From the IMG/VR virus record IMGVR_UViG_2721755663_000004: DNA of 32,882 nucleotides; one strand, given 5' to 3'. The number at the start of each line of letters is the position of its first letter. The stretch's first letter is position 1. Source of the DNA: a virus (Duplodnaviria; Heunggongvirae; Uroviricota; Caudoviricetes). Shown here in pieces: positions 29,700 to 32,882 of this stretch. A program made the position numbers and the translations under genes. The notes beneath the pieces were generated by a model. That model was not told where the DNA came from. It saw only the letters and a program-made list of their open reading frames with translations, and made no database searches.

Positions 29700-30154
29700 T
29701 ACGCCTCCTGCTTGTCGCGCAGCAGCTGGAACTCGCAGCTCTGCGGAATAGTCAGGTGGCAGCCAATATTCATCGCCCAGGCTTCAACCTTACACGGGAA
29801 GACATACATCTCTCCGGTATCAAGATCGGAGGTATGGCGTAACGACTGGATCGTAGTGATTTCGCCGGTTACGACATCAACCAGGTCCTTGGTTTCATAA
29901 CCGAGGTATGTGTGTTTGAGAGCATCTTTCACCCATGCTGCAGTAGCGAACGATTTCCCCCTGCTTATGAGGTATTCACTGATTTCGCTGTACCACATGT
30001 GGCTAAGTGCATTCTGGGAAAGACTGCGTCTCTCGCGCCACGGTTTAAGCACCATGCGAAAGCATTTGCCGTCCTCCAGATAAGGCTGGATCTGCTGACC
30101 GATAGCGGTGAAGTTACCACGATGCAATTTGATGCCATCTTGTAGGAGGTTCAC
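29699..30154 (-). CDS. ybcN: YbcN-like nin-region protein, 151 aa, GTG start
   Basis: (M)[57 protein letters not shown]... resembles DLP12 YbcN; GGAGGTGA RBS before GTG at 30152-30154. Confidence 0.75.
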
Positions 30155-30343
30155 GATTCACCTCCGCAGAGGTCAAACGCTGGATGCAAAAAATCGCAGG
30201 TGCATTTCTGCATCTGTGACAGCAAAAGAGAGTTTAGATTGTATGTGCGCATAAACGTCCCCGTTTAGCGCAGAAGTCACCGATGTTGTTCAGGCTCCGG
30301 TGACATTATTATTGCTGGTTGATTATGGAAAATCAAAGGTAGA

Positions 30344-30826
30344 TTAATTTAATAATCCTTGGAGAAATCTCACGCACCACCTCAATAGTTGCGCTTGCTC
30401 TTGAGAATCAACAAAAAGATAAGCTTCTTTATTTCCGTGGAAAAGGTTATTTCTTATCCTTATAACTATCTTTAATACTGTAGACATGGTGTTTAGATCT
30501 GTTGCTGCGTCATTTTGAAGTCCATTAACTATTCCCCGCCTATCTCTCTCTCGACCGACACAGAGGGCGTCAAGTCTTTCCTGCGCATCCCCGTTCAAAA
30601 TGTATCTCTGCTTAAAATCGTGAAAAAGTTCGTTGGGCACCTTTATCCCGGCGTCAAGTAACGTTCGCGCATAATTTAAACTGTCTTCCCCCTTAGCAAA
30701 GCCACCAAAAAAACTTTGCTCGACCCTAGGAAAAATCATGCAGAATTGAAGATAAACATCAATCAGTTCATCAGATGGAGGCTCCGATAAATTAAGTAAC
30801 CGCTGCAGTCCTTCTGCACTTATCAT
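30344..30826 (-). CDS. Hypothetical 160-aa protein with HEPN-like Rx4H(G) motif; candidate RNase/toxin-type cargo
   Basis: Intact [31 protein letters not shown]...[20 protein letters not shown]...; R-NNLF-H about 37 aa from the C-terminus resembles the HEPN/HepT RX4HXY motif; low-GC by eye; ATG overlaps the stop of the upstream small ORF (ATGA). Not a lambda or DLP12 backbone gene I recognise. Confidence 0.55.
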
Positions 30827-31071
30827 TTTTCACCTTCCTGCTTAAGATGTCGAGGAGTGGATGCCTTGGGCAGCGCGATGCTCTGCTCGCGGTAATGTCG
30901 TGGCCGCTCCAAAAAATAGTCCCGCAAATGCTCAGGCTGCTCACGCATCACCGCTTCGGCAATAACCGGTATATTAAGGCGCTCTTTGTAGGTAACTCAG
31001 GAGACAGCAAGGTCAACGTTAACCTTCTCGCGCTCTTCTTGTGTTTTAGCGGCAATATTCTGCTTCGACAT
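30823..31071 (-). pseudogene. 82-codon ORF interrupted by an in-frame TGA (30997-30999); either a nonsense-disrupted partner gene or a 41-aa protein starting at Met 30946-30948
   Basis: Same frame reads MSKQNIAAKTQEEREKVNVDLAVS[61 protein letters not shown], with its stop overlapping the start of the HEPN-like gene. Confidence 0.3.
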
Positions 31072-31082
31072 GGCGTTACGTT

Positions 31083-31404
31083 TTACTCCTTTTTGGGTGC
31101 ATACACGTTGTTTATCCGTTCAATATGAATAGTTACATCCGGGCTTTCTAAGAATAAGAAGTCAATCAAATGACCAATGAGAATGCAGGCATCATTAATA
31201 GAGGACCTTGTGACTTTAATCCCTCCATGACTGCCGTGATTCCCCAACCACTTTAACGCCATGAATGCATCTTTATTTGGTCCCAGTTTATCTGAATAAT
31301 ATGTGATTCTTTCATGCGTAGAAAGACGTATTATCTTGCCTTTAACTGTTTTCTCTCTTGGTACATCAAGACTATCAAGCATCATCTCCAGTATGGTTCT
31401 CATG

Positions 31405-31430
<26 letters not shown>
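31083..31430 (-). pseudogene. 5'-truncated gene fragment (115 codons); N-terminal 9 codons and GTG start supplied by the IS911 left end
   Basis: ORF ...HMRTILEMMLDSLDVPREKTVKGKIIRLSTHERITYYSDKLGPNKDAFMALKWLGNHGSHGGIKVTRSSINDACILIGHLIDFLFLES...; upstream reading frame runs into the IS terminal sequence TGAAGTGGTTTACTG beginning at about 31405; low-GC. Domain assignment (possibly DUF4145-like) is from memory and tentative. Confidence 0.45.

Positions 31431-32882
<1,452 letters not shown>

Follow-up and report, generated by a model that had tools for sequence, protein, structure and literature searches.

The stretch of DNA analysed here (the window; 32,882 nt, IMG/VR record IMGVR_UViG_2721755663_000004, Caudoviricetes) carries two overlapping frames on its minus strand (Table 1). 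By translation, the upstream frame has 82 codon positions and opens at the ATG 31071–31069. Its first 24 sense codons (MSKQNIAAKTQEEREKVNVDLAVS) are followed by a TGA at 30999–30997 (minus strand), which is the only interruption, and then by 57 further in-frame sense codons, all of them open, up to a terminal TGA at 30825–30823. This terminal stop overlaps the ATG (30826–30824) of a 160-aa ORF in the tetranucleotide ATGA. The ORF list also gives a distal ORF of 42 or 41 aa that starts within the frame at GTG41 or ATG42 (30951/30948). An initial annotation of the window had described an 82-codon frame with one TGA and a stop lying over the start of the 160-aa ORF, and its coordinates are correct. 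It had also taken the two parts for one gene cut by a single nonsense codon, which we can confirm: a profile of the DNA polymerase III theta subunit matches the N-terminal half at positions 1–24 (E 1.9e-9) and the distal half at positions 26–82 (E 9e-32), both in the same frame. A frame of this kind is far beyond chance.

Table 1. Features at the theta locus of the window and the evidence on which they are based
Feature	Position	Strand	Evidence
Pseudogene of a prophage DNA polymerase III theta / Hot homologue, 82 codon positions plus stop	30823..31071	-	Translation, Pfam, PDB, PHROG, PGAP
Premature TGA at codon 25, in place of the invariant Gly of the DLAASGVAYKER segment	30997..30999	-	Alignment to Hot, theta and homologues
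24-aa N-terminal peptide plus stop, the only translatable product from the authentic start	30997..31071	-	ORF list, translation; theta profile positions 1–24 only
Distal 42-aa (GTG) / 41-aa (ATG 30948) ORF, C-terminal theta remnant, no independent gene	30823..30951	-	ORF list, theta profile 26–82, full-length conservation in homologous loci
Shine-Dalgarno-like GGAAGGTG in the last theta codons, 4 nt before the ATG of the 160-aa ORF	30831..30838	-	Sequence reading; function as ribosome binding site inferred
160-aa all-alpha protein of unknown function with invariant R-x-R-N-N-L-F-H-G-x-K	30344..30826	-	phrog_27260, alignment, AF2 model
3' remnant of a DUF4145 (divergent HEPN) gene, 5' half removed by the IS junction	31083..31430	-	PGAP, comparison with IAI1
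Truncated IS3-family (ISEc52-like) element	31441..32465	+	ORFs, PGAP

Next to the theta frame, PGAP annotates a 'DUF4145 domain-containing protein' of 106 aa (31083–31403). The full-length DUF4145 protein of E. coli IAI1 has 250 aa (Pfam DUF4145, E 7.9e-12), and the domain has been classed as a divergent HEPN (PMC3710099, PMC13017515). The IS element ('IS3-like element ISEc52 family transposase, frameshifted, incomplete' according to PGAP) connects this remnant with what is left of a lambda-type integrase, the C-terminal 138 codons (32466–32882; 'tyrosine-type recombinase/integrase, missing N-terminus'). In the intact prophage of IAI1, theta is preceded by bet, gam, the repressor region, O, P and the complete DUF4145 gene. 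As the gene upstream of theta differs in other genera, we regard the DUF4145 remnant as context outside the conserved pair. A scan of positions 30100–31600 for promoters and terminators gave counts no higher than those of shuffled sequences.

With Gly in place of the TGA, the repaired frame scores 101.2 bits against Pfam PF06440 (cut-off 34.6; profile positions 2–68 of 70) and matches P1 Hot (PDB 1se7; E 2e-31, residues 4–80, 77 aligned residues), E. coli theta (PDB 1du2; E 2.5e-18, 66 residues) and phrog_1105, 'DNA polymerase III theta subunit' (E 6e-32). Its closest relatives are prophage and phage copies, and with 95.4 bits it stays just below the cut-off of 97 of NCBIfam PRK10969, the model of the chromosomal HolE orthologue, so that it is a phage gene of the Hot type and not the chromosomal orthologue. 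The frame passes the PF06440 threshold but lacks the uninterrupted ORF of ~75–85 codons that encodes the whole three-helix protein; given the TGA at codon 25, it is a pseudogene of the theta/Hot family and not a functional member. PF06440 was in fact the only family found, as no antitoxin, MNT, DNA-binding or nucleotidyltransferase family of Pfam, NCBIfam or PADLOC matched the frame, and the suggestion that the partner of the 160-aa ORF might be an antitoxin was thus not borne out. A ribbon-helix-helix antitoxin, our first impression from the residues KVNVDL, was likewise dropped in view of the unambiguous theta/Hot match in Pfam and PDB. Theta is known to bind the proofreading subunit epsilon (DnaQ) at its N-terminal exonuclease domain and to stabilise it, and the same may hold for P1 Hot; a complex of Hot with the N-terminal domain of epsilon has been crystallized and its structure determined, and a holE deletion mutant is viable (PMC2528190). 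For prophage theta homologues other than P1 Hot we found nothing specific in the literature.

P1 Hot is the best relative of the window theta with a solved structure (PDB 1se7, 2ido; ~68% identity to the P1 hot gene by tblastn), belongs to the same length class (82–83 aa) and is likewise carried by a temperate enterobacterial phage. However, the window copy cannot make the protein owing to its TGA at codon 25, sits in a lambdoid prophage, within the nin region, rather than in a P1-type plasmid prophage, and is followed by the overlapping 160-aa gene, whereas the theta loci surveyed have many different downstream genes. E. coli HolE (PDB 1du2, 2ae9, 2axd) is a member of the same family, and DKVNVDLAAAGVAFKER as well as a 16-residue segment are conserved in the window theta, which differs from HolE in being of the phage Hot type and a pseudogene. 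The setting is shared by intact thetas from lambdoid phages and prophages (Escherichia phage HK639 gp60, Enterobacter phage CobraSix, Klebsiella phages and many enterobacterial prophages; 72–82% protein identity). They occupy the same slot between the replication genes and ninB/ybcN-ninE-rusA-Q, and they often overlap the next gene by 4 nt, as the window copy does. Unlike the window copy they are open (108 of the 116 thetas of a motif-anchored sample are uninterrupted), and the gene downstream of them is usually unrelated to the 160-aa protein. An intact theta of an E. coli prophage, for example, is followed by a 207-aa gene without significant similarity to it; this gene shows a sub-threshold DUF4145 match and an RNQYAH motif.

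In the alignment of Hot and theta the TGA stands opposite the Gly of SGVAYKER, a position that is 100% conserved in 119 homologues. The codon is GGC in HK639 and in the theta remnant of the OkiPb01694-type allele, and GGA in the intact E. coli prophage relative, so that one G-to-T change accounts for the TGA. We surveyed the occurrence of the stop with an 81-nt query centred on the TGA, which finds a perfect match in 34 complete E. coli genomes and a match of 97.5% identity in 18 further ones. The TGA is retained in 52 of the 52 complete E. coli genomes with this allele (34 + 18), the second class being represented by one genome read directly, NC101, where the only difference from the query is GTT ACC to GTG GCC. 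It is also present in 10 metagenome contigs and in nine of the nine IMG/VR contigs that carry the window allele. The proposal of a consensus error, offered by the initial annotation as one way out, is refuted by this recurrence. On identical DNA, PGAP/RefSeq reports 'DNA polymerase III subunit theta, internal stop', and the theta locus is labelled a pseudogene in D9, IAI1 and NC101. The split frame is an ordinary prophage theta pseudogene that is already annotated in RefSeq.

Based on sequence comparison, we consider it very probable that the frame 31071–30823 represents a dead copy of a prophage-borne hot/theta gene, inactivated by one stop mutation. A G-to-T transversion (GGA to TGA) at the codon of the invariant Gly25 would end translation after 24 residues, too short for the theta fold, and a functional theta product is presumably absent. 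The mutation very probably arose once, before the IAI1-type and NC101-type alleles of the nin-region module split, and was then passed on to every E. coli copy. Theta is non-essential and E. coli has its own chromosomal holE, which lies outside the window; the loss was probably tolerated for these reasons. Uninterrupted theta genes are found in the orthologous cassettes of Klebsiella aerogenes, Salmonella and Enterobacter cloacae, and the ancestral state is a working theta gene. Decay has gone further in other alleles: the NC101-type theta carries an additional 1-bp deletion, and the OkiPb01694-type allele retains only a theta remnant with a stop and a 55-nt deletion. In both types of loci the last ~55 nt of the frame, including GGAAGGTG, are almost unchanged. 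The window theta departs from strongly conserved positions seven times, compared to a median of two in its homologues. Between the window and IAI1 alleles there are two nonsynonymous and no synonymous changes, and between IAI1 and NC101 three of each, which is too few to demonstrate neutral evolution; between genera theta has a dN/dS of ~0.1, in line with a working ancestral gene, with saturated synonymous sites. As a counterpoint, the stop has been kept in alleles ~2.5% apart and in very diverse strains, and in the IAI1-type and window alleles it is the sole lesion, which by sequence leaves some room for weak UGA readthrough into a full-length product. The split frame itself is of little consequence, being a routine pseudogene that the NCBI pipeline already labels.

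The 160-aa protein downstream matches phrog_27260 (unknown function) and no model of Pfam, NCBIfam or PADLOC. We collected 174 representative relatives and aligned 92 members of the family, in which E36, R123, R125, N127, H130 and K133 are invariant; all six residues are present in the window protein, which bears on the suggestion of the initial annotation that the toxin may be inactive. Its AF2 model (pLDDT 93.6) has nine helices. Foldseek comparison of the model with PDB and BFVD gave nothing below E = 1, a profile search of the PDB sequences found nothing, and no homologues were found in the phages collection or among the GTDB species-representative genomes. The stretch R125-N-N-L-F-H130, invariant in the 92 members, fits the HEPN Rx4-6H signature of HEPN toxins and defence RNases (HEPN-MNT pairs; DUF4145 proteins, e.g. 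RAZR/PD-T7-4), the protein is all-alpha, and the window also contains the DUF4145 remnant. Two of the 92 relatives match HEPN_RiboL-PSP (E 1e-4), but the window protein itself, unlike these systems, has neither a HEPN profile match nor a PADLOC model, and in contrast to HEPN-MNT pairs its locus contains no MNT or other known antitoxin partner. Its assignment to HEPN is putative and based only on the invariant RNNLFH motif.

The theta frame had also been taken for the partner of the 160-aa ORF, and as a conserved upstream neighbour it does qualify: the ATGA overlap recurs with intact theta in prophages of Klebsiella aerogenes, Salmonella Braenderup and Enterobacter cloacae. One may then ask whether the two genes form a functional module, either toxin–antitoxin-like or directed at the replisome, in which theta restrains or guides the 160-aa protein. 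The TGA would in that case be tolerated or selected, with HolE substituting for theta, the module being silent or polarity lowering the expression of the downstream gene. A small upstream gene overlapping a larger downstream one does resemble the layout of type II toxin–antitoxin systems, and the adjacent, overlapping genes are co-conserved. All six of the context-checked clusters of close relatives (>=74% identity) lie directly after theta, as do distant members (24–33% identity) at the loci L076/L175, L130, L154, L161, L164, L179 and L180, and theta or a remnant of it directly precedes about 16 of 43 distant IMG/VR members. The RNNLFH motif would suit a toxin, and theta is often decayed beside the family (the E. 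coli TGA25, a stop at codon 63 in E. mori, in-frame stops at L169/L181 and several frameshifts), while it is mostly intact with other neighbours. On the other hand, theta has a defined and different role, the binding of epsilon (PMC2528190), and the family searches described above, PADLOC included, gave it no antitoxin relationship. The 160-aa family follows theta in only four of 120 motif-anchored theta loci, the slot is filled by no fewer than 20 unrelated gene families, in keeping with a cargo hotspot, and theta is absent beside P0129, P0130 and at least 23 IMG/VR relatives.

A toxin gene should not persist intact without an intact antitoxin gene, yet this is what the 160-aa gene does. Theta has decayed independently in several lineages, and at least 34 genomes combine a dead theta with a 160-aa gene that is open and has all invariant residues: the IAI1-type region is common to 34 complete genomes at >=99% identity, and the window, D9, IAI1, OkiPb01694-type loci and several IMG/VR contigs all combine an open 160-aa ORF with a dead theta. 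The gene does not depend on an intact theta, and a Shine-Dalgarno-like sequence for it lies in the part of theta's 3' end that has been kept. It is itself broken in many E. coli copies, independently several times (E93*, K45*, a frameshift and a truncation), and is therefore dispensable. Persistence beside a dead theta and repeated knock-out both fit poorly with an addictive toxin–antitoxin pair. A broken antitoxin next to a live toxin, the unexpected situation that the initial annotation had pointed out, is consequently not supported, and we consider it improbable that the two genes act together in the manner outlined above.

Theta is broken in three of the four motif-anchored loci with the 160-aa family next to it, compared to eight of 116 otherwise, and a sample that started from the family contained 10 broken and six intact thetas, but the loci are phylogenetically non-independent and the two samples were drawn differently, and we therefore rejected this excess as proof of a functional link. 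A broader proposal, that theta/Hot and the RNNLFH family constitute an undescribed two-gene module with theta as partner, regulator or trigger of a nuclease-like effector, is speculative and has in our view a small chance of being right. If true, the repeated inactivation of theta beside the family would reflect functional interplay and not plain drift. As a by-product of the analysis, phage theta/Hot genes are seen to precede a highly variable cargo slot that repeatedly holds the uncharacterised all-alpha RNNLFH family or DUF4145-like proteins. The recurrent pairing of theta with the RNNLFH family is modestly interesting, and it is cheaply testable for a role in defence, toxicity or replisome-related function.

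Readthrough of the stop, e.g. by near-cognate decoding with tRNA-Trp, would leave a down-tuned gene giving a little useful full-length theta. Among the stop codons of E. coli, UGA is generally considered the leakiest, and in the IAI1-type and window alleles the 57 codons behind this single lesion have stayed open. However, the replaced Gly is invariant, so that a bulky residue in its place would probably not be neutral, and a stimulatory structure after the stop is absent: a 76-nt segment that spans the UGA and ~66 nt of the following sequence folds with -13.3 kcal/mol, weaker than the mean of shuffled sequences (z +1.28). The frameshifted and deleted thetas of the sister alleles also indicate that nothing 3' of the stop is maintained. 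We regard a leaky theta gene as very unlikely.

Even less credit can be given to the idea that the functional unit is the distal ORF, with a leader of 24 codons before it, as had been suggested for the 41-aa version; the comparative data contradict it. The ORF does have a start codon at the distal position, and phrog_29833 (a 52-position profile of unknown function) matches residues 34–77 of the theta frame, which would be consistent with such theta fragments having been annotated as genes in some phages. But homologous loci, a comparison that the initial annotation had proposed, conserve the whole protein of 80–85 aa, and conservation is among the highest in the first 24 codons (KVNVDLAASG). 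Met42 lies inside a conserved 12-residue segment, and on reading the sequence we saw no Shine-Dalgarno-like motif before it. In addition, the distal ORF is lost by frameshift in NC101-type and by deletion in OkiPb01694-type loci, while the start region of the 160-aa gene is kept in both.

Finally, a sequencing or consensus error or a selenocysteine codon has practically no probability, as nothing more than the bare presence of an in-frame TGA speaks for either: the same TGA occurs in 52 independently sequenced complete genomes and in more than 20 other contigs, and selenocysteine or other recoding was rejected because no SECIS-like hairpin or other structure follows the TGA (the same z of +1.28), Rfam gave no match around it, and the homologues have Gly at codon 25, neither Cys nor Sec. 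With the dead theta copy as the preferred reading, one apparently intact allele needed attention, the 83-aa protein P0001 with 96% identity, which derives from short metagenome contigs. Both TGAs are present in its DNA but were read as Trp, and under table 11 it cannot be translated in this way; it is a gene-calling artefact, most likely due to the use of genetic code 4 by the gene caller. No truly intact protein with >82% identity was found among 5.8 billion clusters, and the sole 'intact' version in this collection is spurious, which calls for some caution with database entries of this kind.

The minus-strand 82-codon frame next to the 160-aa ORF reads exactly as placed in the initial annotation, with 24 sense codons before an internal TGA, 57 in-frame sense codons after it and a terminal stop that overlaps the ATG of the 160-aa ORF (30826-30824) as ATGA. 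For the identity searches we used the 82-aa product with the stop replaced by Gly. This repaired frame scored 101 bits against Pfam PF06440 (cut-off 34.6) and matched phrog_1105, "DNA polymerase III theta subunit", with an E-value of 6e-32; on sequence grounds, the repaired product thus belongs unambiguously to the DNA polymerase III theta family. Its best solved relative is phage P1 Hot (1se7; E 2e-31, residues 4-80), followed by E. coli theta (1du2; E 2.5e-18), and with 95.4 bits it stays just below the cut-off (97) of the chromosomal HolE subfamily in NCBIfam, which makes it a phage Hot-type copy. In the profile search the N-terminal half covers theta positions 1-24 and the distal half positions 26-82 in the same frame, so that we are dealing with a single gene split by one nonsense codon, as initially proposed, and not with ORFs aligned by chance. 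The suggested role as an antitoxin did not survive: the only match is the PF06440 theta family, with no antitoxin identification.

Features around the split theta frame
Feature	Position	Strand	Basis or remark
Theta frame	ATG 31071-31069, terminal TGA 30825-30823	minus	sequence reading
Internal TGA, codon 25 of theta frame	30999-30997	minus	sequence reading
Distal 42/41-aa ORF	starts GTG 30951 / ATG 30948	minus	ORF listing
160-aa ORF	30826-30344	minus	
DUF4145 gene, 3' remnant	31083-31430		upstream of theta frame
Truncated ISEc52-like IS3 element	31441-32465		joins 3' part of DUF4145 gene to integrase remnant
Lambda-type integrase, last 138 codons	remainder of 31441-32882, after IS3 element		

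The internal TGA aligns with the Gly of the DLAASGVAYKER segment, a residue invariant in 119 of the 119 closest homologues. An intact E. coli prophage relative has GGA at this codon, from which one G-to-T transversion is enough for TGA (HK639 and one other allele have GGC). Very probably, a prophage hot/theta gene became a pseudogene through a GGA-to-TGA nonsense mutation that is now fixed. Its loss is probably tolerated, since theta is non-essential and the host also encodes holE. A holE deletion mutant is viable (PMC2528190). Theta stabilises the epsilon proofreading subunit, P1 Hot may do the same, and a crystal structure of Hot with the epsilon N-terminal domain exists (PMC2528190).

A consensus error, also considered initially, is contradicted by recurrence of the same TGA. 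Among 5,426 complete E. coli genomes, 56 carry the module. With an 81-nt query that has the TGA at its centre, 52 genomes with the stop were found (34 at 100% identity, 18 at 97.5%); it also occurs in 10 metagenome contigs and in 9 of 9 IMG/VR contigs of this allele. From the 97.5% class only NC101 was read directly; it keeps the TGA and differs just after it (GTT ACC to GTG GCC). As all copies surveyed keep the stop, the nonsense mutation has reached fixation in this E. coli allele and is older than the split into two sub-alleles (IAI1-type and NC101-type), which differ by about 2.5%. Within a database of 5.8 billion clusters the only seemingly intact version of the allele is P0001 (83 aa, 96% identity). 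We rejected it, as it has Trp at both TGAs and its own DNA is untranslatable under table 11; most likely it is a gene-calling artefact of genetic code 4, which could mislead hunts for intact alleles. On the short metagenome contigs concerned (L006-L015) the contexts read ..AVSWVTY.. and ..GEKW, with the stops present in the DNA. The closest truly intact proteins are 80-82% identical.

Recoding of the TGA is unsupported: shuffled controls fold better than the RNA after it (z +1.28), an Rfam search at the site gave no match, and the homologues carry Gly here rather than Cys. Nor does the distal 41-aa ORF look like the functional unit, as had been suggested, for its Met42 lies within a conserved stretch of theta and no Shine-Dalgarno-like sequence was seen ahead of it. 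Decay goes on in sister alleles: the NC101-type theta carries an extra 1-bp deletion, and all that is left at the OkiPb01694-type locus is a recombinant remnant that has another stop and has lost 55 nt. Between the window and IAI1 alleles there are two nonsynonymous and no synonymous changes, and at seven strongly conserved positions the window allele has a deviating residue (homologue median two). Between genera dN/dS is about 0.1, so the ancestral theta gene was under purifying selection. E. coli D9, 100% identical across a 1,201-nt query around the locus, carries the PGAP label "DNA polymerase III subunit theta", pseudogene with an internal stop; the pseudogene is thus already annotated in RefSeq and there is nothing new in the split frame itself.

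The window is a lambdoid, DLP12-like prophage, with tail, head, terminase, lysis and porin genes, quuD and the nin-region genes rusA, ybcO, ninE and ybcN on its minus strand. The corresponding IAI1 prophage contains bet, gam, the repressor region, O, P and a full DUF4145 gene; by this comparison the window copy appears to lack the recombination, immunity and replication region. It is thus probably defective and no longer has the usual early rightward transcription reaching the nin region. The intact 250-aa DUF4145 protein encoded upstream of theta in IAI1 (L002 7256-8008), to which the window remnant corresponds, begins with a Cys-rich part (CPNC ... C..C..C) ahead of DUF4145, a layout resembling the reported zinc-ribbon plus DUF4145 arrangement of the defence RNase RAZR/PD-T7-4 (PMC13017515). 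It has K-W-L-G-N-H where R-x4-H might be expected, and no PADLOC match. In OkiPb01694 (L004 6147-8099) phosphoribosyltransferase-like and NADAR genes replace DUF4145 upstream of the theta remnant, and a SIR2 gene adjoins the repressor. The gene behind the 160-aa gene in both E. cloacae and E. mori encodes a NACHT protein of 633 aa. Defence-type cargo thus gathers in this neighbourhood.

The 160-aa protein has no match in Pfam, NCBIfam or PADLOC (whose models cover none of the three local proteins) and falls into phrog_27260, of unknown function. A profile search of 1.84 billion representatives gave 174 relatives, which with few exceptions stand alone as proteins of 155-180 aa; E36, R123, R125, N127, H130 and K133 are invariant in 92 aligned members. 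The AlphaFold model, a confident one (pLDDT 93.6), is all-alpha and the R-L-R-N-N-L-F-H-G-x-K motif fits the HEPN Rx4-6H signature; a HEPN_RiboL-PSP match occurs in only 2 of the 92 relatives (E 1e-4). "HEPN-like" is hence to be read as a motif-level hypothesis and not as demonstrated membership.

Close relatives form eight database clusters at ≥74% identity, and in all six whose genomic context was checked the gene lies directly behind a theta homologue, so the initially noted neighbourhood is conserved. In K. aerogenes, Salmonella Braenderup and E. cloacae no stop interrupts the theta frame and the ATGA overlap is the same, and the 74-aa theta of E. quasiroggenkampii ends 17 nt upstream of the 160-aa-type gene. 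The E. mori theta (L026 3756-4004) has an in-frame stop at codon 63, giving a 62-aa product, after which the frame is open to the ATGA overlap; this stop may trim only the C-terminal tail, so the copy might still function. Beside a dead theta, the 160-aa ORF is open with all family-invariant residues in the window, D9, IAI1 (whose region recurs at ≥99% identity in 34 complete genomes), OkiPb01694-type loci and several IMG/VR contigs. It has also been inactivated several times independently in E. coli copies: by E93* in NC101 (L003 8264-8746; by identity class, a sub-allele common to 18 complete genomes) and, in IMG/VR contigs L035, L036, L039 and L041, by K45* (two contigs), one frameshift and one truncation. 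An open ORF beside a dead theta that is itself repeatedly knocked out is not expected of an addictive toxin-antitoxin pair. The final ~55 nt of theta, with a GGAAGGTG motif 4 nt before the 160-aa ATG, are almost unchanged even where the rest is frameshifted or deleted, which suggests that the 160-aa gene has its own ribosome-binding site there.

The only element that deserves follow-up is the pairing of theta with relatives of the 160-aa protein (RNNLFH family), the rest being of low interest. We compared a theta-first and a family-first view, whose loci are not independent and were ascertained differently. Among the best 80 IMG/VR theta loci 76 thetas are intact, and the slot behind theta is filled by 20 or more unrelated gene families, frequently overlapping it by 4 nt. 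When 120 loci were sampled by motif anchoring, the RNNLFH family lay downstream in only four (three with the E. coli TGA allele, one intact), and 108 of the 116 thetas with other neighbours are intact. Starting from 43 distant relatives of the 160-aa protein in IMG/VR (24-42% identity), theta or its remnants lie immediately upstream in about 16; six are intact (L154, L161, L164, L175, L179, L180) and ten broken, e.g. by in-frame stops at codon 28 in L169 and at codon 11 in L181 (which is frameshifted as well), by a frameshift in L158 or by an internal deletion in L171. This association is too frequent to ignore. Still, a cargo hotspot beside a conserved gene would look similar, and we regard a true functional module as improbable.

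In other viral contigs, relatives of 24-33% identity lie directly after theta at L076/L175, L130, L154, L158, L161, L164, L168, L169, L171, L179-L181, L183 and L184. P0131 (32% identity) follows a 75-aa theta; P0129 and P0130 are not behind theta. Behind other intact prophage thetas, with the same 4-nt overlap, the next ORFs (L016 4246-4869; L051, L052, L061) encode 207/211-aa proteins with an RN(Q/K)YAH motif and a sub-threshold match (E 0.022) to DUF4145, a divergent HEPN RNase domain (PMC3710099; RAZR, PMC13017515). By these features the slot after theta is also taken by a second, putatively HEPN-like family.
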